NCBI GenBank assembly: GCA_963710375.1
Contig: CAVPZX010000005.1
Span: 384,001-448,000 of the forward strand
Origin: Nitrospirota bacterium
GTDB lineage: Bacteria > Nitrospirota > Thermodesulfovibrionia > Thermodesulfovibrionales > Dissulfurispiraceae
DNA: 64,000 bases
Direction: 5' to 3'
Position 1 is the stretch's first letter; each line of letters opens with the position of its first letter. Positions 49,775 through 64,000 of this stretch are shown here, one piece after another. The notes beneath the pieces were generated by a model that was given only the letters and a program-made list of their open reading frames with translations, made no database searches and was not told where the DNA came from. Position numbers and translations under genes: made by a program.

Positions 49775-49829
49775 AGGATAAAGCATAAATGTTACATAAA
49801 TGTTACGTCAGTGTTAAATATATATTACA
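49775..49829 (-). promoter_or_regulatory. Pho-box-like array and -10 upstream of pstS
   Basis: Minus-strand TGTAATA/TTTAACA/CGTAACA/TGTAACA at exact 11-bp spacing (+ starts 49823, 49812, 49801, 49790), then TATCCT. Confidence 0.8.
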
Positions 49830-50105: not shown

Positions 50106-50360
50106 TCACCCCATGCTGATTGTTGCGATTATCTCACTATCTGCCATCATTTTTTTCAGGTATTTCTCAATATCAAAATGATCAGGATCATATGTAATGA
50201 CTAGGCTTCCGGTAACCGGGTTGGCCCGGACATCTTTAACCCCCTCCGGTATGGGTATCTCTGCTAATTTTTTTAGTGTTGCAATAGAAAGCTTTTTTAT
50301 CACCGGCACTTGTACTCTGATACGTCCCGGAACATGGTGAACCACCCTATAGTTGATCAT
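50106..50360 (-). CDS. Stand-alone HMA2/CoBaHMA-like domain protein
   Basis: VVHHVPGRIRV...ANPVTGSLVITYD; no CxxC. Confidence 0.8.
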   Translation of the reverse strand: MINYRVVHHVPGRIRVQVPVIKKLSIATLKKLAEIPIPEGVKDVRANPVTGSLVITYDPDHFDIEKYLKKMMADSEIIATISMG

Positions 50361-50403: not shown

Positions 50404-50443
50404 TCTTACAAGATGATGAACTGTCAGTTACAACTTTGTGACA
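50404..50443 (-). promoter_or_regulatory. Pho-box-like array upstream of the HMA2/Cys4 pair
   Basis: + strand TCTTACA, GATGAAC, AGTTACA, TGTGACA at 50404/15/26/37. Confidence 0.65.
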
Positions 50444-50641: not shown

Positions 50642-50929
50642 ATGGCACTTTTTGATAATGGATTAAAGGGTAATATAGTTACAGGCCTCGCTGTCGGCAT
50701 TGGTGCGGCTCTATTTGCCCCTCAGGTGATTCCGGCACTGGCAGGTGTGGTAAAGCCGCTTGCAAAAGCCGCCATAAAGGGCAGCCTTGTTTTATATGAA
50801 AAAGGTAAAGAGGCTTTTGCAGAAGTAGGTGAAATGATGGAAGATATCGTTGCGGAAGTAAAGGCTGAAATGGCAGAATCACACAATGAGGCAGCCGGTA
50901 TCAGCCCCGACGATAAAACAGGCGCCTGA
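50642..50929 (+). CDS. FezA/DUF5132-like small membrane-associated protein
   Basis: GLAVGIG GxxxG segment, KPLAKAAIKG, EMMEDIVAEVKAE amphipathic helix. Confidence 0.75.
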   Translation: MALFDNGLKGNIVTGLAVGIGAALFAPQVIPALAGVVKPLAKAAIKGSLVLYEKGKEAFAEVGEMMEDIVAEVKAEMAESHNEAAGISPDDKTGA

Positions 50930-51417
50930 TGATTCCTGAAGCAATTGTATGCCACTCTTCACCTGGAAGATCAAGGGTTAAAGTGCCTTCCAGAAAAGGT
51001 GACGCCGCTTATTTCTCTAGCCTGAAGGACCATTTTGCTCATCTGGAGGGAGTCAAGGAGGTCGAAGCAAATGCCGTTACAGGCAGTGTTGTGTTCATGC
51101 ATGCTGCTGATTTAAAGGCAATTTCTACTTTTGCCGAAGATCATTCACTTTTCAGGCTCATTAAATTAGAGTCCGCGACGCCTGCTCTGTCCCGAAATGT
51201 GGTTAAATCATTCAGGGACTTTGATAAGAAAGTAAAAAAATTTACCGGCAACGAACTGGATGTCCCCGGAGTGGCTTTCCTGACGCTGCTGGGGTTAGGT
51301 ATATACGAAATCGGCAGGGGAAACTTTGCCGCACCTGCATGGTATACCGCTTTTTGGTATTCATTGAACATATTTCTGAAATCAGTGCCTCATACCACCG
51401 ATGAGGAGAACAAATAG
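50929..51417 (+). CDS. HMA2-domain membrane protein (FezC-like architecture)
   Basis: HSSPGRSRV...ANAVTGSV, then TM LLGLGIY and PAWYTAFWY. Confidence 0.75.
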   Translation: MIPEAIVCHSSPGRSRVKVPSRKGDAAYFSSLKDHFAHLEGVKEVEANAVTGSVVFMHAADLKAISTFAEDHSLFRLIKLESATPALSRNVVKSFRDFDKKVKKFTGNELDVPGVAFLTLLGLGIYEIGRGNFAAPAWYTAFWYSLNIFLKSVPHTTDEENK

Positions 51418-51496: not shown

Positions 51497-52150
51497 ATGA
51501 CTAAGGGCGAGGCTAAGGCTAATTCAAGAGGGGCTGCCAATATTGGAGCAGCTGGAACAAAGGTGAAAGAGGGCATTGTAAGCAGCCTGAAAGGAATAAA
51601 CGAAATCGAGGCGGAAATCGTTAGTTTGGTGAGAAATACTGTCTCCAATGCGCTGAAGGCGACGGCATCGGTAGCCAGCGAGGGCGTGGTCATAACGAAG
51701 GATGTGGTAAAGGGCGCAATTCAGGCTACGGAAGAGGTCGGTACCGGATTGATTTTGAGCACTAAAAGTGTTGCCAAAGGAATTATAATGGGGGTCAGCG
51801 ATGTAGGCGGTGATGTGCTTAGTGTTGCCGGGCAGACTGTCAAGGGCGCTGTCAAAGGTGCTGCCGAAGTCGGTGCAGATGTCGCACTTGTTGCGAGAAG
51901 GGCTGTGGACGGTGTAATTGAAGCAACAAAAGAAATCGGAGGAAATGTTGAAGAGGCTGCCACAGTTGCCGTCGGAGGCGCAATAGAGGCCGCCGGATCT
52001 ATCGGCACTACTGCTGTGCATGCCGTGAAGGACATGCTTGTCGGCGTCGTTTCAGGAGTGAAAGAAGTTGCCGGCTCCGCGCTGCCGAAACCGCGTTCAT
52101 CCGCGGCGACTGAAGTAACGTCAAGGCACAGAACAAAAAGGGAAGAATAG
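51497..52150 (+). CDS. Gly/Ala/Val-rich protein with 22-aa amphipathic repeats
   Basis: VVKGAIQATEEVGTGLILSTKS / VAKGIIMGVSDVGGDVLSVAGQ / TVKGAVKGAAEVGADVALVARR / AVDGVIEATKEIGGNVEEAATV / AVGGAIEAAGSIGTTAVHAVKD. Confidence 0.8.
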   Translation: MTKGEAKANSRGAANIGAAGTKVKEGIVSSLKGINEIEAEIVSLVRNTVSNALKATASVASEGVVITKDVVKGAIQATEEVGTGLILSTKSVAKGIIMGVSDVGGDVLSVAGQTVKGAVKGAAEVGADVALVARRAVDGVIEATKEIGGNVEEAATVAVGGAIEAAGSIGTTAVHAVKDMLVGVVSGVKEVAGSALPKPRSSAATEVTSRHRTKREE

Positions 52151-52156
52151 CGGCAC

Positions 52157-55100
52157 GTGGTCCAGACAGTACACGCGACCATACCCGGCAGGGCCCGATA
52201 CAAGGTGGCCGGACTTTACCGTTCGGAATCGCTGAAAAACCACATTGAATCGGGCCTTTCAGACAGGGAAGGGATTAATCTTGTCTCTGTAAACACATTG
52301 ACCGGGAGCGTTCTCGTATATTACAATTCCATCGATACCCCCGAATACGTTGCCAATGTTATTCAAAATATAGTCCTCGAACATAAAGGCAACGGTTTCA
52401 AGCAGATTGAAGATACTGCTCCTCTGTCCGGCTCCCGGCTTCCTGCAGCGGAAAGCCGTATGCCCGAGACCGGGCTGTCTCCCGCCCCGGCTAAAGAGAT
52501 AAAAAGCAGGGGTAAAGTAAGAAGGCTTGTCAGCCATGCCGAGGACCAGACGGTTGAGGAATGGCATGCTGCCGAACCGTCCGCAATCCTTGAGCGGCTC
52601 GATACTGCAGCATCTACGGGACTTTCAACTGAGAGCGCACAAGCAAGGCTAAAAAAGTTTGGTCCCAATCTCCTGCCTGAATCCGTCCCGCGTTCGGGAT
52701 TGAGCATTCTTCTCGATCAATTCAACTCGATCCCAAATGCCCTGCTGGGCGTAGCAGCCGGTCTCTCTGTTCTTACGGGAGGTATAGCTGATGCAATCGT
52801 CATTGCCGGAGTAGTAGGGATTAATGCGGTCATAGGCTATGTAACGGAGAGCCAGGCGGAAAGAACCATCCACTCTCTCAAGAGTCTTGTCAGGCCCTCT
52901 GCGCTTGTAATAAGAGATAATATTTATAAAGAGGTCCCTGCTGAAGATGTGGTAATCGGCGACATTCTGGTACTCAGGCCCGGCAGCTATGTCGCTGCCG
53001 ACAGCAGAATGGTTGAAGCAACTCACCTGAGTGTTGATGAATCAGCGCTTACCGGGGAGAGTATGCCGGTCGTTAAGTCTACGGAAAGCATCGCAGCCCA
53101 CAATCTGCCGCTTGCCGACAGGGTCAATATGGCCTATATGGGGACCCTGGTGACCGGGGGACAGGGCTTTGCTGTAGTTGTAGCCACCGGAAAGTTTACG
53201 GAGATAGGGAAGATACAGGAACTCGTGGGAGCTGCAGAGTCGCCAGATACTCCTATGGAGCGTCAGCTTAGAAAAATGGGCACACAGCTCGTGCTTATCA
53301 GCGGAGCTGTCTGTGGTCTTGTTTTCATCATAGGACTGCTGAGGGGATATGGTTTCCTGCAGATGCTCAAAAGCTCGATCTCTTTAGCTGTCGCTGCTGT
53401 CCCCGAGGGGCTGCCGACAGTTGCAACTACGACCCTCTCACTGGGGATCAGGAATATGAGGAGGCATAAAGTCCTCATTCGCCATCTCAACGCAGTCGAA
53501 ACACTCGGCTCGGTACAGACCATATGCATGGATAAGACCGGTACCATAACCCTGAACAGGATGACGGTTGTGGCTGTCCATTCGGGGATGAAGAGAATAA
53601 AGGTGATGGACGGAAAATTTATGGCCGGCAGGGAGAACATTAACCCCTATACCTCTGACGAGTTCCTCAGGCTTATCCATATTGCAGTGCTCTGCAATGA
53701 ATCTGAAATCATCGTGAAAGAACATACAGCTCGAGATCACCGTGGGAAGCACTTACGATGAGAACGGAGAGGGGAAATATGTGCTGCGCGGTTCACCCAC
53801 CGAGAACGCCCTTATGCATATGGCTATTTGTGCAGGTGTTGACATAGTTCAACTAAGAAAGATGTTCCCGCTTCTCAAAATAGGCTACCGCTCTGAAAAC
53901 CGCAATTATATGGCAACCCATCATGACTACGGCGTCGAGGGCAAGATCATAGCGTTGAAAGGCAGCCCTACGGAAGTGCTGGCAATGTGCGATTGGTATA
54001 TAAAGGACGGCGAAAAGATTTTGATCTCCGATGATGACAGGCTTGCATTGGAAACAGAGAATGAGCGAATGGCTGGTGAAGCACTGCGAGTCCTTGCCTT
54101 TGCTTATCACCAGTCTGAAAATGGCAACGGCGCCGGGTCCGACATCACCAGAGGTTTTGTGTGGCTCGGCCTGGTCGGGATGGCAGACCCCACCAGAAAG
54201 GGAGTCAGGGAACTGATCGGCGTCTTCCACCGGGCCGGCATAGAAACAGTTATGATAACCGGAGACCAGACGCCTACGGCTTATGCCATCGGAAACGAGC
54301 TTGACCTGAGCAATGGAGAACAGCTCGAAATCCTGGATTCGACCCACCTTACCGATATAGAACCCGATGTCATGAAAGCGCTTGCCGAGCGTGTCCATGT
54401 TTTTGCCCGCGTCAGTCCTGCCCATAAGCTTCAAATAGTGCAGGCTCTTCAGAGTGCGGGGAAAGTAGTCGCAATGACCGGCGACGGCATTAATGACGGC
54501 CCTGCGCTCAAGGCTGCCGACATAGGCATTGCAATGGGGCATACAGGCACAGATGTAGCCCGTGAGGTGGCCGATATTGTGCTTGAGGACGATAATCTTG
54601 AGACCATGATCATCGCTGTAAGCCATGGACGCACTATTTATAACAATATTCGAAAATCAGTGCATTTTCTCCTGTCGACCAACCTCAGTGAAATTATGGT
54701 CATGTTTACGGCCATTGCCGGAGGCCTCGGTCAGCCGGTCAATGCCATGCAACTGCTTTGGATCAACCTCATATCAGATATATTCCCCGGACTGGCGCTG
54801 GCACTTGAACAGCCAGAACCCGATGTGCTCACCAAGCCGCCGCGCAACCCTGAGCACCCTATTATTATGAGCAGCGACTTTAAAAGGATAACTTTCGAAT
54901 CCGCAATGATGAGCGCTACTACTCTCGGCGCATATGGGTACGGCATTGCGCGGTACGGACGTGGAGCGCAGGCAGGGACAATGGCCTTTATGACTCTGAC
55001 AACGAGTCAGCTTCTGCACGCCATTAGCTGCCGTTCTGAAAAAATCAGTGTCTTTGACAAAGAGCGTCTCCCGTCCAACAGGTACCTTGATGCTGCTCTG

Positions 55101-55271
55101 GGAGGCTCATTTGCGCTGCAGGCTTTGACAGTGGCATTGCCCGGACTTAGAGGCCTGCTCGGAACAACAACTATCAATTTTATGGATGCCCTGGTGATCG
55201 CAGGAGGTTCTCTGCTCCCTCTGGTTGTCAATGAAGCTACCAAGAAAACTATGCGAGGTGAAGCTATATGA
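52157..55271 (+). CDS. P2A-type (Ca2+-like) P-type ATPase with N-terminal HMA2 domain; one apparent frameshift near 53715-53760
   Basis: HATIPGRARY N-domain; TGES, VPEGL, DKTGT in 52157-53761; KGSP, TGD, GDGIND, STNLSE, WINLISD in 53742-55271. Confidence 0.9.
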
Positions 55272-56455
55272 AAAAGGATTTCATGTTTACGTCCGAATCG
55301 GTAACAGAGGGACATCCCGACAAGCTCTGCGATCAGATTAGCGATGCCATCGTTGACCACTTTCTGCAGCAGGACCCGTACTCACGTGTTATCGCAGAAT
55401 GCGCTGTTTCGACGTCGATACTCTTCATAGCTGCAAGGTTTGCATCTGACGCACGTGTTGACTTCCCCTATATAGCACGTCAGGTAATATCTCAGGTTGG
55501 CTATGAACAGCATGAGTTTAACGGGAAAACATGCAGTATCCTTACGAGCCTCAAAGAATCACCCCGTGACGTGGACTGCTGTTTTGATGAACGGGAGTTG
55601 TCCGAGAGAGAAATCGACAATATCCCGGTCAAGAACCAGGTTACGGTTTTTGGTTTCGCATGTAATCAAACCCCCGCATTTATGCCGCTTCCCATATGGC
55701 TCGCTCATAAGCTTGCCAGACGGCTCACTTCGGCAAGACTTCAGAAGATACTGCCCTATCTTTCCCAGGACGGAAAAACCCAGGTGGGAGTTGAATTCAG
55801 GAACCGCGTTCCATACAGGATACACAGCTTAACGGTTATTGCAAGCCAGAATAAGCGCGGAGGCCCTGATCTGAAACAGTTGGGCGATGATATACGGGAA
55901 GCAATTATCGATAATGTCTTCCTTGATGAATCTATCAAGCCTGATAAAAATACCAGGATATTCGTTAATCCGGACGGCCCGTTTATCACCGGCGGCCCGT
56001 CAATCCATTCAGGGCTTACCGGCAGAAAAAATGCAATTGATACCTATGGGGAGTACTCTCGCCACAGCGGTGCAGCACTCAGCGGTAAGGACCCGATGAG
56101 AATTGACCGGGTCGGCGCGTATGCTGCGCGTTACGCGGCGAAGAATGTGATTGCGGCCGGGCTTGCCGAGGAGTGCGAAATCCAGCTCAGCTATTCCATA
56201 GGTCTTTCCCATCCTGTGAGCATTCAGGTAGAGACCTTTGGCACCGGCAAACTGCCGGACGCGATTATTGCCGATCTGGTTGAGAAGAATTTTGATTTCA
56301 GGCTTGCCGGAATTGTGAAACAGTTTAGTCTCAGGCGCCTGCCTGCTGCCATTAAAGGCGGTTTCTATCGGAAGCTTGCTGTCTATGGGCATGTCGGCAG
56401 AATGGATATAGGGTTGCCGTGGGAAGTCACTGATAAGGCCCACCTGCTGAAATAG
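55268..56455 (+). CDS. Divergent methionine adenosyltransferase (MetK) homolog
   Basis: FTSESVTEGHPDK, DGKTQV, GLTGRK and GKD retained; GAGDQG signature replaced by PVKNQV; start overlaps ATPase stop. Confidence 0.85.
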   Translation: MKKDFMFTSESVTEGHPDKLCDQISDAIVDHFLQQDPYSRVIAECAVSTSILFIAARFASDARVDFPYIARQVISQVGYEQHEFNGKTCSILTSLKESPRDVDCCFDERELSEREIDNIPVKNQVTVFGFACNQTPAFMPLPIWLAHKLARRLTSARLQKILPYLSQDGKTQVGVEFRNRVPYRIHSLTVIASQNKRGGPDLKQLGDDIREAIIDNVFLDESIKPDKNTRIFVNPDGPFITGGPSIHSGLTGRKNAIDTYGEYSRHSGAALSGKDPMRIDRVGAYAARYAAKNVIAAGLAEECEIQLSYSIGLSHPVSIQVETFGTGKLPDAIIADLVEKNFDFRLAGIVKQFSLRRLPAAIKGGFYRKLAVYGHVGRMDIGLPWEVTDKAHLLK

Positions 56456-56588: not shown

Positions 56589-56621
56589 ATATAAATGTGC
56601 TTTATCGCAGGAGGGGTGATA

Positions 56622-57413
56622 ATGGGACAGAATCAAAGCACAGTTCTGAGCATGCGCAATGGTCACTTTATTGTAAAACTGGCTGAATATCACGAAGAAC
56701 TGGAAAACACACTCAAACTGCGTTTCGATATATTTAACAGGGAGATGAATGAGGGCCTAAAAAGCTCTTACGTCACCGGCATGGACATGGACAATTATGA
56801 TGACTACTGTGATCACCTCATTGTTGTCGATACCCGTTGTAACAAGGTGGTCGGGACTTATCGTCTGCTCCTGGGTTTTGTCGCAGAAAACAGTATCGGC
56901 TACTATTCGGAGGGCGAATTCGATATGTCCGCTATCAGGACTATCGGGGGCGATAAGCTGGAACTCGGCCGCTCCTGCGTCCACAAGGATTACAGGAATG
57001 CCGGTGTCATCAATCTGCTTTGGGCCGGCATAGCCCGGTACATAGAAATATATGGTATTCGCCATTTATTCGGCTGCGGCAGTCTGCATACCAGTGACCC
57101 TGAAGAAGTAGGCATGGTATACTCTTACATGAACACATTTCACCGGGCAGGCGACGAATATACGGTGTATCCTATGAAAAAGCTGCGCGAGGTACGCTTG
57201 GCCAGCATTGTGGACCGGAAAACCGCGTTCGATAAACTCCCGCCGCTTATCAAGGGATATCTGCGGCTCGGAGCGCTTATATGCGGAGAGCCGGCTTATG
57301 ACGACATATTCGGAACAACGGATCTCTTTTTGCTCCTGGAAACAGAAAAGCTCATCAGCCGCTATAAAAGGAGGTTTTTCCAGCAGCCAGACGAGACATT
57401 ATGCCGGGCATAA
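56622..57413 (+). CDS. OlsB-like GNAT N-acyltransferase (ornithine/amino lipid synthesis)
   Basis: DNYDDYCDHL, VVGTYRL, ELGRSCV, PPLIKGYLRLGA. Confidence 0.82.
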   Translation: MGQNQSTVLSMRNGHFIVKLAEYHEELENTLKLRFDIFNREMNEGLKSSYVTGMDMDNYDDYCDHLIVVDTRCNKVVGTYRLLLGFVAENSIGYYSEGEFDMSAIRTIGGDKLELGRSCVHKDYRNAGVINLLWAGIARYIEIYGIRHLFGCGSLHTSDPEEVGMVYSYMNTFHRAGDEYTVYPMKKLREVRLASIVDRKTAFDKLPPLIKGYLRLGALICGEPAYDDIFGTTDLFLLLETEKLISRYKRRFFQQPDETLCRA

Positions 57414-58201
57414 TAAAACTATTAAGATTATTCCTGATTCTTATACTAAATCTCGTGTTCCTTGTCTGCGGTTTTTTGATAACGGCAGCTTTTTTTATTG
57501 CTCCTGAAAAGAAAATGTACCTCCGTGCTCATGGAATGCGATGGTGGGCGCGAGTCGGCTGTTTTATCCTTGGTATCCATATTACTCCCACCGGCTCATA
57601 TAAACAAAACGATGTCTTCTTCATCGTGAGTAATCATTGCAGCTATCTGGATATACTCATCATAGGCGCTATAATGCCCTCGGTCTTCGTCTCAAAAAGC
57701 GAGGTGGCCTCGTGGGTCTTCCTGGGCAGGATGGTAAAGCTTGCAGGGACTGTTTTTGTCAACAGGGAATCCAAAACAGCTGCTGTCAGAGTATTGGAGG
57801 CTATTAAGGAGCGCCTCGAGAGCGGCATTAGTGTTGTGGTTTTCCCTGAGGGAACTACCAATAACGGACTCAACATCAGGGATTTCAAGAGCACCTTTTT
57901 CAAAGCACCCATAGACAGCAAGGTGCCTATTTTGCCGCTCAGTATTATATACTCCCATTTAAACGGGATGCCTGTGACACCCGGAACAATTGATGCCGTG
58001 GCCTGGCATTCAGATATGCAGTTTGTCCCTCATTTTTGGAACCTTCTGGGTTTCAGCCGGATTGATGCAAGGATTCATTTCAATCCACCGCTTTACCATT
58101 TCACGGAAGACAGAAAAACACTCTCTTCTTTTGTGTCAGGGAAGGTCAAGCACGGCCATAATCTTTTAATTAAGAATTACGAATCAGGAATTAGGAATTA
58201 G
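57401..58201 (+). CDS. OlsA/PlsC-like lysolipid O-acyltransferase
   Basis: NHCSYLD, FVNRE, FPEGT; overlaps the GNAT gene. Confidence 0.85.
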   Translation: MPGIIKLLRLFLILILNLVFLVCGFLITAAFFIAPEKKMYLRAHGMRWWARVGCFILGIHITPTGSYKQNDVFFIVSNHCSYLDILIIGAIMPSVFVSKSEVASWVFLGRMVKLAGTVFVNRESKTAAVRVLEAIKERLESGISVVVFPEGTTNNGLNIRDFKSTFFKAPIDSKVPILPLSIIYSHLNGMPVTPGTIDAVAWHSDMQFVPHFWNLLGFSRIDARIHFNPPLYHFTEDRKTLSSFVSGKVKHGHNLLIKNYESGIRN

Positions 58202-58247: not shown

Positions 58248-58619
58248 TTATAATAATACAGCTAATAACGACAGTGCTGATCCTTCCAATGCTTCCTGGA
58301 CAAAAGCCCCCAATACCGCCCGGCCCACCAAATGTCCTGTTTTAGCGGCAGCGCTATGTATATACTGATCATTGGTGGCCGCCTTTGTCGTATCGAAATA
58401 ACCTTTCCGTTGTAATATGCTTATGATATCCTTATGGTTGGCCATCTTTGGATTATAGTTCACCAGCAGACTGCCGGTAGTAAGGTTAATATCGACCGTA
58501 GCAATCCCATTCATTGTACTTAATGCCTTTTTGAGTTCGTTAGCCACGTTTTCGTTCCTTTTTATCGACGGGCTTTTAATTCTGAGTCTCCCGGGCACAT
58601 TATGAATGTAATAACTCAT
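58248..58619 (-). CDS. HMA2/CoBaHMA-like domain protein with hydrophobic C-terminus
   Basis: YIHNVPGRLRI...INLTTGSLLVNYN; C-terminal GSALSLLAVLL. Confidence 0.8.
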   Translation of the reverse strand: MSYYIHNVPGRLRIKSPSIKRNENVANELKKALSTMNGIATVDINLTTGSLLVNYNPKMANHKDIISILQRKGYFDTTKAATNDQYIHSAAAKTGHLVGRAVLGAFVQEALEGSALSLLAVLL

Positions 58620-58911
58620 TGTATCCCTCCTTATATGTTTTCGTGAATGTCTTGCAAACCGGATATCCCGAACACCTGAATCGTAATACTTTATCTTCCC
58701 TTTTATATAAATGCATTATCTTTCCACACACAGGACATGACGGCCTGTCCCTGACTTCAAATCTCCCGGTACCATGAGTAAATTGCCTGCCGCATATAAG
58801 ACATAGAAACCTCTGTTTCCCTTGCCAAGTTTTACCATATTTATAAACAGCATCCAAATTACAGTGCGGACATTTTGCTTCAACTTTTTCTTTCGCCGCA
58901 TCTGTCGTCAT
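58600..58911 (-). CDS. Double zinc-ribbon protein (InsA-like ribbon + topoisomerase C4-like ribbon)
   Basis: CPHC...YKYGKTWQGKQRFLCLICGRQF and CPVCGKIM...RCSGYPVC. Confidence 0.75.
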   Translation of the reverse strand: MTTDAAKEKVEAKCPHCNLDAVYKYGKTWQGKQRFLCLICGRQFTHGTGRFEVRDRPSCPVCGKIMHLYKREDKVLRFRCSGYPVCKTFTKTYKEGYNELLHS

Positions 58912-58917
58912 ATAAAC

Positions 58918-58973
58918 ATTGTAATCAAATACCATTACAACAATATGACAGTCTGTGTTACCAACGAGTTAAA
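58918..58973 (-). promoter_or_regulatory. Pho-box-like array and TACAAT -10 upstream of the zinc-ribbon gene
   Basis: + strand CATTACA, TATGACA, TGTTACC, AGTTAAA at 58933/44/56/67. Confidence 0.65.
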
Positions 58974-59205: not shown

Positions 59206-59261
59206 ATAATAACAACTCTTGTGTTACAACAATATGAAAAGAATGTTACAATTCTGTAACA
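59206..59261 (-). promoter_or_regulatory. Pho-box-like array and TATTAT -10 upstream of Cys4 paralog 2
   Basis: + strand TGTTACA, TATGAAA, TGTTACA, TGTAACA at 59222/33/44/55. Confidence 0.72.
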
Positions 59262-59561: not shown

Positions 59562-61292
59562 TTACTCATTGACTCGTTCAAATGGTTTATTGCCATTGGA
59601 CCGTGTTTTGAATCCTGTTGACGAATTCCTTAGTTCATCAGCAATGCCGGTAAGGGCGTCAACCTCATGTGTCACTTCGACAGACATCATCTCCATTTCT
59701 TTTGCTATCGCTGACGTCTCCTCAATACTCCTGAGCACGTCTTCGGATACCGCTGTCTGCTGGTCAACTGCCGCGGCAATCTGAGTTATCTGATCACGTA
59801 CCTTGCGCACAGAGTCCACTATACTGGTCAGTGAAGCGCCCGCCTGTGTCATATAGTCTTTCGCTCCTGTAACTTCATCAGAAGCATCCCGCATGGATTT
59901 TGTTGTCTTCCTGGATTCTGACTGGACAGCGTGAATTTTTTCCGTAATCTCGGCGGTGGCCCTGATTGTCCGCTCGGCCAGCTTGCGCACTTCATCAGCA
60001 ACTACGGCAAATCCCCTCCCTTGCTCGCCGGCGCGGGCCGCTTCAATAGCTGCATTGAGTGCAAGAAGATTGGTTTGGTCGGCAATATCGTTTATGACGG
60101 TAGCTATATCCCCGATTTCGCTCACCCTGTTGTTAAGCCCCTCCATCATTGAAGCTGCCTCAACAGTTGAAACGTGCACCTTGCTTACCGTAGCAACTGC
60201 CCCGTCAATTACGCTCTTGCCCCTTTCAGCGGCGGACATGGTCTGTGCAGAGGTCTCAGATGCGGCTGTGGCGCCTGCCGCAATGTTGTTAATGGTCTGG
60301 CTCATCTCGCCGGCAGAGGTGGCGATGTGCGCTGCTTGGAGGGATTGGCTTTTTGCGCCGCCAGCCGTTTTTTCAGCTTCAGCCCTCAGCTTCTGTACTG
60401 TGGAGATCACCTTATTTTCCGAATCGAGCATGCCGCCTATCATTCCGTTAAATGAATGGATCATCTTGTTAACATCGCGGCTCAGAATCCCTATCTCATC
60501 TTTGCTGTCATATTCAACTGATGCGGTAAGATCGCCGCTGGCCACCTGTTCAACAGTTTCAGCAAGTTTGGTCAGCGGTTTAATTATGTCGTTGACTATA
60601 AGGTAGCCGAAAATTATTGCGAGCGCCACTCCGACTATAATACTCACAAAAGCTATGGTGCTCACTGTTGTAAACAGCGATTCCGAGTGTGCATATGTCT
60701 CTTTAGCTTCCTCGATGTGGAGGGCGATCAACTCGCCAAGTTTTTGCTCAATCGGCTCAATAGTGGGATTCAGTTCGTCGATAAAAAAGTCGCTGAGTTT
60801 CTGACGGTCTTCCTCTTGTAAACTGTCCTTTAATTTGTTCAGAGGCGCCTCCAGACCAACCTGGGTATTATTTGCGCTCGCGATATCAAACAGCGGTTGA
60901 GTCTCTGCTATCAGTTTCTTCTCACGTGCGGTGTGCTCCAGTTCGGTATAGGCCTTCCATTTTTCGGCGATCACCAACAGCGCCTTATCAACGTTCTTGC
61001 GTCCTTCCTGCCATAAAGACTTATCCCCTTCAATAGGGTTGTCCCTGATGCGCTGCACGGACTTGACGATATTTATTGCATACATGTCAGATATTTCCTG
61101 AAGATCTTTCAATGGCAGCACATTTTTTTTGTATACGATATCGGTGCCGGCTACGGTCTTTTGCATGCCTATGATACCGAGTGTGCCGATAGCGATCAAC
61201 AGCATCAGCATAAAAACGACGAGCGCCAGGAGACGGTAGCCGATCTTTACATTATCCAGAAAAACGGTCTTGTATTTTTTTTTGAAACTCAT
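59562..61292 (-). CDS. Methyl-accepting chemotaxis protein (4HB sensor, HAMP)
   Basis: Two TMs, [38 protein letters not shown]; start MSFKKK overlaps the GT stop (TAATG). Confidence 0.93.
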
Positions 61293-62518
61293 TATGCAAA
61301 GCGCTCTTTTATTGCATCTATAATCCTGTAGCGCAGGGACCAGAAACCGGTTTCCGGGCAGGGGGAGAGTATAGAATTTTTGCCGATACTGTACCTGTTG
61401 CCTCTCCAAACAACGGTGTTGCTGACAATCGGCACAGACCATATGAGCCCGATAAGAAGGTCTTTAAACGGGGCAAGCAAATAAAGAAAAGGATTATCCA
61501 GTTCGCTTCCGGTCTTTCTGCCCAGATAGAAGTCACCGGCCACCTTAAGTAGTGAAGTGAGAATTGCGAACGTGACGGTCAATTTAGTGCATTGCCAGAA
61601 TACAATCGGCAGCGCCGACATGAATACCGGGTTGCCTAATAGTTCGAATACATATTTCCCGCCGCCGAGTTTCCACCTGAGCTTGCCCCATCTCGTATGA
61701 CGGTTAAGGAACCGCCTTAGCCCCCAGTATTGATTTACATTTTGCACCATGTAGCCAGACAGCACCACTTTTTTGCCGCTCTTGCGCATTCTTTCCCCAA
61801 TGACATAATCCTCGGCAAGAATATCTTTTACCGCTTTGAGCCCGCCGATTGCCTCTAAATCCTTCTTGGACATCAGCATGGATTTCCCAACCACGCAGGG
61901 CATTCTCAAAAACTTATCGAGAAAGCATACGCTTCCCATAACAAAAGAGTTAAGATGCAGATTTTCAAATACTGCGCCCAGGGAACGGCCGCCGACACCT
62001 TTTATAATATTGCTTACCAACCCTATTTCACGGCCTTTGGCAGGATTCTCTATATGACTGGTTATTGCCCTGAGATACTTTTCATCAACCATGACATTGC
62101 TGTCGCTTATAAGGATATAGTCATACCTTGAAACTTTATACGCGGGCAGAAGATTATTGACTTTCGGATTAAGGCCGGAATTGGAATCTTCAACTATAAT
62201 GGTGATGTTTCTGTCAGGGCATTTTTCTCTTATTTTCCTCGCTACTTTGTAAGCAGGATCATTATGACTCTGGAGCGAGAATATGATCTCATATTCAGGA
62301 TAGTCCTGATTACAAAAGCTGAGAAGGTTGTCGTGCAAATTGTCATCCAATCCCTTAAGCGGTTTAAGAATCGAAACGGGAGGAAAAAGTCGGGGAAGGG
62401 CATGCCCTTCCCCGCAGTCACAGGGAGTGGAAAGATACGAGCGCACTGCCAATATTTGGAAGCCATACGCAATAAGACCTAAAAAAGTAAGAGAAGCAAA
62501 AAGCCAGAATATGCCCAT
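61292..62518 (-). CDS. GT21 ceramide-glucosyltransferase/HpnI-like glycosyltransferase
   Basis: [29 protein letters not shown]. Confidence 0.85.
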
Positions 62519-62543
62519 TACTCTCCCTCCATTAGTGTTTCAC

Positions 62544-63236
62544 TTAGTTTCTGAATAGGGTTATTGCAACCCCTTTGTTGTGTTTAATACATTGTTTCAC
62601 CGCTGCAGTATCTTTCTCGCAATTAAGCAGCGTTTTCCACGAATACAGGTGTCGTGCCTTATGGAAGTCGCTATTGGCAACATAGGGATACTTTTTCAGA
62701 CTTATAACATTGAAAACATCGTCTCTGTTTGCCACTTCCCATGCATCGATATATTTGGCATATTTCTCCCTGTTGTTCCAGAGGAACAGGGTGTCACGGC
62801 TCATGTCAGACATATAATGAGGGTGGCAGGCCACTATCAGAGCGTCCTGTTCCCTTGCCTCGGAAAAAATCTTCTCATAGTTCCAGGAGGCGGGAATAAA
62901 ATCCTTTATATCAATAAGCAGCAAGTGAGCAGATTTGTCGGAAGAGATATGATTTTTGCTGATTTCAACTCCTGGGATCACCAGCATCCCGTACTTGTCC
63001 AATGCTCTATCCGCCTCTTTCCTGATATGTTCCATATACTCGCCGAAATTGTCTTCCCTTACTGAAAGGTTGAAGCGCTGGGCAAACTTTCCTATGGAGT
63101 TGTCGCCACTCACTACATGGTCGGTAATTGCAATAACATCGAATGCCGCTTGTCCAAAAAGGTCGATGGTTCGTCTCAACTCCACGGAACCGTCAGAGTA
63201 TGTGGTGTGGATATGAAAATCACACAAAAGCATCAT
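62544..63236 (-). CDS. PHP-domain phosphoesterase
   Basis: DFHIHTTYSDG, AITDH, GVEIS, CHPH, NSDFH. Confidence 0.87.
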   Translation of the reverse strand: MMLLCDFHIHTTYSDGSVELRRTIDLFGQAAFDVIAITDHVVSGDNSIGKFAQRFNLSVREDNFGEYMEHIRKEADRALDKYGMLVIPGVEISKNHISSDKSAHLLLIDIKDFIPASWNYEKIFSEAREQDALIVACHPHYMSDMSRDTLFLWNNREKYAKYIDAWEVANRDDVFNVISLKKYPYVANSDFHKARHLYSWKTLLNCEKDTAAVKQCIKHNKGVAITLFRN

Positions 63237-63240
63237 ATAC

Positions 63241-63296
63241 ATATTAGTATTTCTTTGGTTACAGCATTATTAAGGGCGGATTAAGATTATGTTACG
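63241..63296 (-). promoter_or_regulatory. Pho-box-like array and TAATAT -10 upstream of the PHP-GT-MCP-Cys4 operon
   Basis: + strand GGTTACA, TATTAAG, GATTAAG, TGTTACG at 63257/68/79/90. Confidence 0.7.
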
Positions 63297-64000
63297 ATCT
63301 GCTTTTGATTATATAAGCGTAATATGCCGCGGCATTGGTGGGCTTGCGTTCCATTGTGTTGAAGTTAACCCGGTAGAGGCCGAACCTGGCATCGAGTCCC
63401 TGCAGCCATTCGTAGTTATCGATCAGAGACCAGTAGAAATAGCCCCTGACATCGATACCGTCATTGATGCTTTTTTCGAGTGCGTCAATATGCCTTTTCA
63501 TATATTTAATTTTTTTCTGTCCGTCGCGGGTTGCAATACCGTTCTCGGTAATGATCAGAGGCACATTAAGCTTTGAAGCGTATCTCAGGACCTTTTCGAG
63601 ACCGCGCGGATGTATTTCCCATCCCATATCGGTCAGTCCATATCCGTCAATGTCCCTGTTCCTCAGTTCAACTCCCATCTTCTTAAACGGATTAAACCGT
63701 ATATGCACGCGTGTATAATAGTTGACCCCAAAGAAGTCCAACTTGTTTTTAATGGGGACAGGAATATTTATTTCGTTTTTAAAAGGGAACTTTACCTTCA
63801 GAACGCCGGTCAAAAAAGCATCCAGCAGCGAATGGTTGTAAAAATACTTGGCGATTTTTGACAGAAGCCTGTCCAGCGGGTTGAACCGGTGCCATGGCGC
63901 CAGGGCCGCCATATTATGCGCCACGCTGACCATTGGTGTAATCCCGTGTTTTTTTGCCTGCTCATGAATAAGGTCGTATGCCTTTGCGTGGCAGACAAGT
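63292..64000 (-). CDS. Glycoside hydrolase family 1 (beta-glucosidase), 5' part outside window
   Basis: GVNYY, TDMGWEIHP, nucleophile ITENG, YWSLIDNYEW. Confidence 0.9.
   Translation of the reverse strand, partial: LVCHAKAYDLIHEQAKKHGITPMVSVAHNMAALAPWHRFNPLDRLLSKIAKYFYNHSLLDAFLTGVLKVKFPFKNEINIPVPIKNKLDFFGVNYYTRVHIRFNPFKKMGVELRNRDIDGYGLTDMGWEIHPRGLEKVLRYASKLNVPLIITENGIATRDGQKKIKYMKRHIDALEKSINDGIDVRGYFYWSLIDNYEWLQGLDARFGLYRVNFNTMERKPTNAAAYYAYIIKSRS

Follow-up and report, generated by a model that had tools for sequence, protein, structure and literature searches.

The closest described relative of the protein examined here is the SAM synthetase MetK (EC 2.5.1.6; TIGR01034; PDB 8BB1, 7LO2), with which it shares a three-domain fold (TM about 0.9), about 40% identity and the metal/triphosphate residues. 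The two differ in that the ligands of the methionine amino and carboxylate groups have been replaced along with the gate loop and the GAGDQG motif, that the MetK-like proteins form a separate lineage, and that their genes are accessory, lying behind a P-type pump while a canonical metK is retained elsewhere in the genome. The pump, for its part, resembles the P2A Ca2+-ATPases (SERCA, SPCA1 and LMCA1 of Listeria) in its catalytic motifs and in the columns E309, N768, E771, N796 and D800, and is set apart from them by an N-terminal CoBaHMA domain, the substitution of F487 by Arg, the loss of K492 in most members, a Gln in place of E908 in most members, and a soluble partner of MetK fold.

Two described gene clusters are also comparable. 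In ferrosome (fez) clusters, a P-type pump is accompanied by R-rich HMA-like proteins and by small membrane proteins with GxxxG (bioRxiv 10.1101/2020.01.10.902569), and the genes described below include the like (DUF5132 with GxxxG, HMA_2 proteins with GRxR); however, FezB is a P1B-6 pump while the pump described below scores best as P2A, and the setting is one of phosphate where that of ferrosomes is iron. Ferrosomes contain both metal and phosphorus, and none of the words "methionine", "adenosyl" and "calcium" occurs in the main text of the same preprint. In the neighbourhood of ccyA (calcyanin) in Microcystis PCC 7806, DUF5132 and CoBaHMA proteins stand beside a Ca transporter, but this transporter is a CAX exchanger, and "adenosyl" is unmatched in the accessible main text (bioRxiv 10.1101/2024.07.07.602159). 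CoBaHMA has been put forward as a possible anionic-lipid binder (cited in 10.64898/2025.12.07.689555), and a 2023 review of P-type pumps (PMC10654040) has, in its accessible text, no match for pyrophosphate or polyphosphate. Our literature search, which covered openly available main texts, returned no description of the MetK-like family, of the change in the pump, or of a MAT-fold soluble partner of a P-type pump.

The window, by which we mean the whole stretch of 64,000 nucleotides that was analysed, contains at 55268–56455 (+) an intact ORF of 395 aa with all three Pfam MAT domains (PF00438, PF02772 and PF02773). Its ATG overlaps the stop codon of the pump gene as ATGA at 55268–55271, as a preliminary description of the locus had pointed out. 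The protein scores 376.6 bits against TIGR01034, above the cut-off of 309.4 (E. coli MetK scores 667.3), and is thus labelled MetK in databases. Its AlphaFold model (pLDDT 95.1, from a 150-sequence alignment) matches E. coli MetK and MAT structures at TM 0.87–0.91 (Foldseek; query TM about 0.9). This model makes gross mis-registration, which the preliminary description had named as a possible fault of its own reading, an unlikely source of the substitutions discussed here.

Residue numbers refer to E. coli MetK from MG1655, with which the ORF was aligned. Retained are E8, H14, D16, E42, D163, K165, R244, K245, K265 and D271, and the earlier statement that the residues for Mg, K and triphosphate are kept therefore holds in full; among them, we take D16 and E42 to belong to the Mg/K/triphosphate site and K165 to serve the C5'-O cleavage step. 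The methionine pocket has been rebuilt and the gate loop replaced. E55 has given way to R57, G117 to K122, D118 to N123, D238 to H247 and K269 to R278 (codons for R57, H247 and R278 at 55436, 56006 and 56099, +), and the GAGDQG motif reads PVKNQV, all of which bears out the substitutions first listed. The acidic ligands of the methionine amino group in MetK, E55 and D238 (PMC3853416), are thus absent and basic residues stand in their places, again as had been noticed. The carboxylate ligands Q98 and K269 are likewise absent (S98 and R278, the change from Lys to Arg being conservative), although position 98 had been misread as approximately Glu: the gapless alignment gives Ser, with Leu in most family members. 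Further changes are R229 to P238, T227 to D236 and I102 to V102; at the gate loop and adenine pocket, D101 and F230 are kept in the query and S99, I102 and T227 are not. The substitution at R229 is real, but its earlier grouping with the methionine site is not, since the residue contacts adenine through its backbone carbonyl in MetK (PMC3853416) and is therefore an adenine-pocket position.

Sequences for the family were drawn from GTDB loci, from phylum searches and from a pattern scan of metagenomes; of 237 HMM hits in these loci, 61 covering fewer than 330 columns were dropped and 176 near-full sequences were kept. The GTDB scan returned mostly canonical MetK, with 7 family members in the best 80 of 598 confirmed loci, and among the matches listed the family occurs in Nitrospirota, Thermodesulfobacteriota, Cyanobacteriota, Acidobacteriota and Binatia; it was also found in 17 of 201 genomes from the phylum of genome G155. 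The metagenome pattern demands H238, R244 and K245, so that conservation at these columns is circular in 67 of the 100 loci of the family, and the other 33 are reported apart. With the signature columns removed, FastTree places the 100 loci and the query on one side of a 100-support branch, with 75 canonical MetKs on the other, and a 51-row IQ-TREE (quick LG+G4) repeats the split with support 99; both trees are unrooted and built without an archaeal MAT outgroup, and "sister family" accordingly means one side of a branch. The distinct ATPase-linked clade that had been anticipated is thus recovered, with the pump directly upstream in 88 of 94 loci.

Conservation within this clade divides the protein into parts. 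His replaces D238 and Arg replaces K269 in 100/100 family members, in 33/33 of the set not selected on His, and in none of 74–75 canonical MetKs, which leads us to consider these swaps as due to neither chance nor decay. E55 is kept in 0/100 members and is R, H or K in 98/100, while the ancestral residue survives in 0/100 at each of D238 and K269, in 2/94 at Q98, and, in the GAGDQG motif, in 7/98 at G117 and 16/98 at D118. The Mg/K/triphosphate residues, in contrast, are 88–100% conserved overall: D16 in 98/98, E42 in 99/99, R244, K245 and K265 in 100/100, D271 in 96/100, H14 in 96/98 (Asn in the other two) and K165 in 88/100, with more variation among distant representatives. The D163 column, which corresponds to a ribose ligand in MAT (PMC3853416), is Asp or Glu in 100/100. 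The adenine and lid columns are relaxed (F230 in 48/98, I102 in 2/94, S99 in 8/94, T227 in 1/100), and at T227 the family has Asp or Glu in 77/100 and G, V, I, R or A in 23/100. The fixation of the methionine-pocket swaps across the family supports, at the level of sequence, the earlier proposal that the protein is not a SAM synthetase. In human MAT, SAM synthesis is reduced by D258G and by substitutions of K289 (equivalent to D238 and K269) while phosphatase activity stays the same, and gate-loop mutants of the E. coli enzyme lose SAM synthesis more than 200-fold with PPPi hydrolysis unchanged, the gate loop being required for the transfer step (PMC6850014).

The source genome (98.8% complete) also holds another metK, which lies beside ahcY and has the canonical residue at every Met-site position; this metK, on contig C2 (692512–693637), is split by a single frameshift, by analogy with the pump gene possibly an assembly error. 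Among 151 genomes of the phylum, 27 carry the MetK-like gene and 26 of these have another MetK match, the lone exception being a 190-contig assembly. In two fragmented genomes (G117 and G151), the MetK-like gene is the only MAT C-domain match found. We regard the MetK-like gene as an accessory paralogue, and the family as real, multi-phylum, mis-annotated and, within the literature searched, undescribed. Other divergent MetK-like proteins (P0295, P0305, P0318, P0325, P0335, P0351 and P0382) have non-canonical Met sites unlike the His/Arg pair of this family, and judging from their sequences there may be further repurposed MAT branches. In addition, P0129 and about 60 other MetK proteins contain inteins (LAGLIDADG/intein Pfam domains).

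The partner gene at 52157–55271 (+) encodes a P2A-type P-type pump with an N-terminal HMA_2 (CoBaHMA) domain and intact catalytic motifs (Pfam). We considered and rejected the possibility that it is a pseudogene: the gene is split by an extra base at 53732 that is missing from the contigs of all four sequencing runs compared (two of them possibly from the source sample), each one base shorter there, and the split is thus an assembly error. For the intact orthologue L005, the best NCBIfam matches are P2A models and the closest PDB entries are SPCA1, LMCA1 and SERCA, although it falls below all equivalog cut-offs. The pump subfamily lies on one side of a 100-support branch (FastTree, unrooted), and a GRxR motif marks its CoBaHMA domain in 72/81 linked pumps versus 1/61 controls.

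Pairing of the two genes is close to strict. The pump ends directly upstream of the MetK-like gene in the 88 loci mentioned above (of 94 with enough flank; canonical loci 0/74), with an ATGA-compatible offset in 26/88, and in five of the remaining six the pump is further off or broken. In the 151 genomes of the phylum, a pump at E<=1e-150 was found in 26, all of which have the MetK-like gene, and the 27th genome has a split pump. Of 201 cyanobacterial genomes, 15 have the pump, and in 13 of these the MetK-like gene follows it directly; in the other two (L282 of G157 and L296 of G252, both Arg487-subfamily pumps) a genome search found no MetK-like gene, which makes them natural controls for whether the pump needs its partner. 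Pairwise distances of pump and partner correlate at r=0.89 (73 pairs, with kin not independent). No full-length fusion of the two was present among 119 longer hits, and four chimeric ORFs were dismissed as fusion evidence, as they are missing much of the pump or of the enzyme, or arise from shifted-frame read-through.

Columns of the pump are numbered after SERCA, whose F487 we take to be the adenine-stacking Phe of P2 pumps. The DKT (D351), TGE/TGES, TGD and GDGxND columns and the Ca-site columns E309, N768, E771, N796 and D800 are conserved in 81/81 linked pumps, and E908 is Gln in 68/81; with its phosphorylation, dephosphorylation and Ca-site columns invariant, the pump looks active. At the F487 column (codon 53889–53891, + in the window) the gapless alignment gives Arg in 85/85 linked pumps and Phe in 60/60 control P2A-like pumps from the same phyla; since the linked pumps are one lineage, the 85 Arg residues trace to a single evolutionary event. 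The preliminary description had not noticed this change at the adenine site of the pump. Most linked pumps have also lost K492, and 81/85 have gained a Glu two residues past the Arg, while E442, M494, K515, R560 and L562 of the nucleotide pocket are kept, K515 and R560 in 81/81. Arginine is able to stack on adenine or to read guanine and the rest of the pocket is intact, which means that nucleotide use by the pump may persist. LMCA1 and SPCA1 pairwise alignments were also used for the F487 column, a residue of the ATP site in SERCA (PMC7313052). A register shifted by one residue in HMMER pairwise alignments, with H, Y or L at the Phe column, was set aside because the multiple alignment is gapless; Phe is not conserved either way.

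The pump and MetK-like genes close an operon whose usual order is a divergent HMA_2 gene, DUF5132, HMA_2-TM, a repeat protein, the pump and the MetK-like gene, followed on the opposite strand by HMA_2 and zinc-ribbon genes. In the window these are a small stand-alone HMA_2 protein (50106–50360, −; Pfam, synteny); a DUF5132 small membrane protein with GxxxG, the first gene of the forward operon (50642–50929, +; Pfam, sequence, synteny); an HMA_2 (CoBaHMA) protein whose C-terminal segment is hydrophobic (50929–51417, +; Pfam, synteny); an operon-conserved Ala/Val/Gly-rich repeat protein (51497–52150, +); and, beyond the MetK-like gene, a second small HMA_2 protein with a zinc-ribbon protein, which travel with the operon (58248–58935, −; Pfam, synteny). 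The repeat protein is found in 18 of 20 long loci of the phylum; it has no Pfam or NCBIfam match, and its three nearest Atlas clusters (0.95–0.97) are unnamed. Elsewhere in the family, a small three-helix DUF3562 protein lies near the MetK-like gene in 23/100 loci (for example L100:241-498(-)), and CorA, cation-efflux, MgtE and MntP transporters recur.

A phosphate-starvation context had been suggested for the locus, and it is borne out in the window, where pstSCAB-phoU and olsB/olsA-like genes flank the operon and a Pho-box-like direct repeat with 11-bp spacing lies upstream of DUF5132 (50426–50443, +; genome rank 24). The matrix was built from upstream sites of the genome's own pstS and phoH-like genes, with a threshold of 12 bits: 11-bp-spaced repeats precede both pstS genes and a phoH-like gene in the source genome (names judged from sequence), and the four repeats upstream of pstS at 49790–49829 (+) served as a training site. 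Across the family, pst genes are rare neighbours (PstB-like hits in 4/100 loci, pst genes in 4/20 long loci). A dyad of at least 12 bits precedes DUF5132 or the operon in 12/50 loci (38/50 lack one), compared with 1–2 when any of six other spacings was used, 0.43 in shuffled sequence and 0/75 upstream regions of canonical metK. On this excess of motif matches over controls, Pho-type control of the operon is likely in part of the family.

Other features of the window touch on phosphate economy. A strong cluster of Pho-box-like repeats (59222–59261; genome ranks 10–15) lies upstream of the minus-strand zinc-ribbon and HMA_2 genes. At 56595–58201 (+), an olsB-like N-acyltransferase and an olsA-like O-acyltransferase (best NCBIfam matches, below cut-off) fit the synthesis of phosphorus-free ornithine lipids, with a weak 11-bp dyad at about 56572. 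At 61292–63999 (−), an HpnI-like glycosyltransferase, a likely glycoside hydrolase and a PHP-domain protein are encoded near weak dyads (63257–63279) and possibly make a glycolipid that substitutes for phospholipids. PPK1, a membrane pyrophosphatase and two Ppx/GppA genes are present in the source genome. A search for PPK1 and PPK2 in the 27 operon-bearing genomes of the phylum found neither in 25, PPK1 in only two and PPK2 in none. Polyphosphate made by PPK is thus not a general substrate and long polyphosphate is a poor fit, which led us to downgrade a role in mobilising it; the apparent anti-correlation of operon and PPK follows family lines and was discounted as evidence.

We tentatively favour, as plausible but short of probable, the reading that the MetK-like protein is a base-free pyro- or triphosphate enzyme coupled to the upstream pump, probably under phosphate-starvation control; it takes up the (tri/poly)phosphatase idea of the preliminary description. 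With the triphosphate site kept and an Arg/His/Arg pocket in place of the one for methionine, the protein would bind tri- or pyrophosphate and cleave or transfer it; SAM synthesis would have been lost, and the second half-reaction of MetK, PPPi to PPi and Pi, or a related phosphotransfer, would be retained with an extra anion pocket. Both proteins may have dropped strict adenine recognition and gained arginines because of a shared inorganic phosphoanhydride, a phosphate currency that the enzyme would supply to the pump or clear, while the CoBaHMA, DUF5132 and repeat proteins would build a cation-phosphate store comparable to the ferrosome. In its favour are the conserved phosphate and metal residues, the lost methionine ligands, the relaxed adenine and lid columns, the near-strict gene pairing, the change of F487 in the pump, the Pho-box-like dyads, and the published MAT mutants described above, which likewise separate SAM synthesis from PPPi hydrolysis (PMC6850014). 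Against it stand the two of 15 cyanobacterial subfamily pumps that keep R487 where no MetK-like gene was found, the scarcity of PPK, the otherwise intact nucleotide pocket of the pump, the many loci without a dyad or pst genes, and the inability of SERCA to use polyphosphate, although use of polyphosphate by PMCA has been reported (PMC13594633). The retention of an acidic residue at 163 throughout the family and of H14 in 96/98, together with F230 in the query, also means that the MetK-like protein may still bind a nucleotide.

That observation leads to a rather unlikely alternative, in which the nucleotide was switched in both proteins: the ligand of the MetK-like protein would be a guanine nucleotide with 3'-phosphates, such as (p)ppGpp, whose 5'-triphosphate would occupy the old site and whose 3'-pyrophosphate would sit in the R55/H238/R269 pocket; by trimming or sensing it, the protein would regulate the pump, where Arg487 and Glu489 would read guanine. 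Phosphate starvation raises ppGpp, and the new Glu of the pump and the invariably acidic column 163 would both fit. The position turned His, D238, is moreover a ligand of the ribose 3'-OH in MAT (PMC3853416, PMC6850014), and T227, whose human equivalent hydrogen-bonds adenine N1 (PMC6850014), is now mostly Asp or Glu; however, the base-contact columns vary in distant members (less than half keep F230, and 23/100 have G, V, I, R or A at T227), unlike a specific base pocket. We consider it quite unlikely that the protein is instead without catalysis and serves the pump complex as a scaffold or regulatory subunit, binding only phosphate, pyrophosphate or Mg-phosphate and reporting phosphate status. 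The near-strict pairing, the ATGA-type offsets and the correlated distances (again with kin not independent) would suit such a subunit, as would the two H14N members and the 12/100 with K165 changed, but the residues for metal-assisted triphosphate hydrolysis are near-invariant, beyond what binding alone usually needs, and the longer hits yielded only incomplete or frame-shifted chimeras of the two proteins.

The preliminary description had also offered an adenosyltransferase for an anionic acceptor, which is weakened by the variation of the adenine and lid positions within the family, even if the retention of D163 speaks in its favour. Such a nucleosidyl (adenosyl) transferase would draw on H14, D163, K165 and F230, all kept by the query, and on a basic new pocket with two invariant positions; yet the gate loop of the transfer step is replaced and I102, S99, Q98 and G117 have disappeared. 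Among the neighbour ORF clusters present in at least 4/100 loci (nine representatives scanned), there is moreover no recurrent family of methyltransferases or of an acceptor pathway. As it also leaves the change from F487 to Arg in the pump unexplained, we hold it to be decidedly unlikely. Finally, the protein could still be a SAM synthetase that binds methionine otherwise, as archaeal MATs do, and supplies SAM locally; it has the same fold, passes TIGR01034 and is the sole MAT C-domain match in the fragmented genomes G117 and G151. Archaeal MATs retain the aspartate equivalent to D238, however (PMC3853416), whereas here both amino-group ligands are basic in 98–100/100, and the further MetK matches in 26/27 genomes of the phylum with the gene and the canonical metK beside ahcY in this one make continued SAM synthesis very improbable.

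Returning to the base-free enzyme, its furthest extension is a P-type pump run on inorganic pyro- or triphosphate and not on ATP, for which a repurposed SAM-synthetase fold makes, trims or channels phosphate, the two together building up or draining a store of calcium phosphate under the control of phosphate starvation, in lineages where polyphosphate kinases are mostly absent; taken as a whole, this picture is unlikely. MAT is generally seen as a one-function family, and a branch of it that passes the curated MetK cut-off is therefore mis-annotated. If the pump does run on PPi or PPPi, or on GTP, a well-studied class of transporters would have a new source of energy, and the MetK-like protein and its pump could provide the phosphate-handling step that is missing for ferrosome-related granules of calcium or phosphate.
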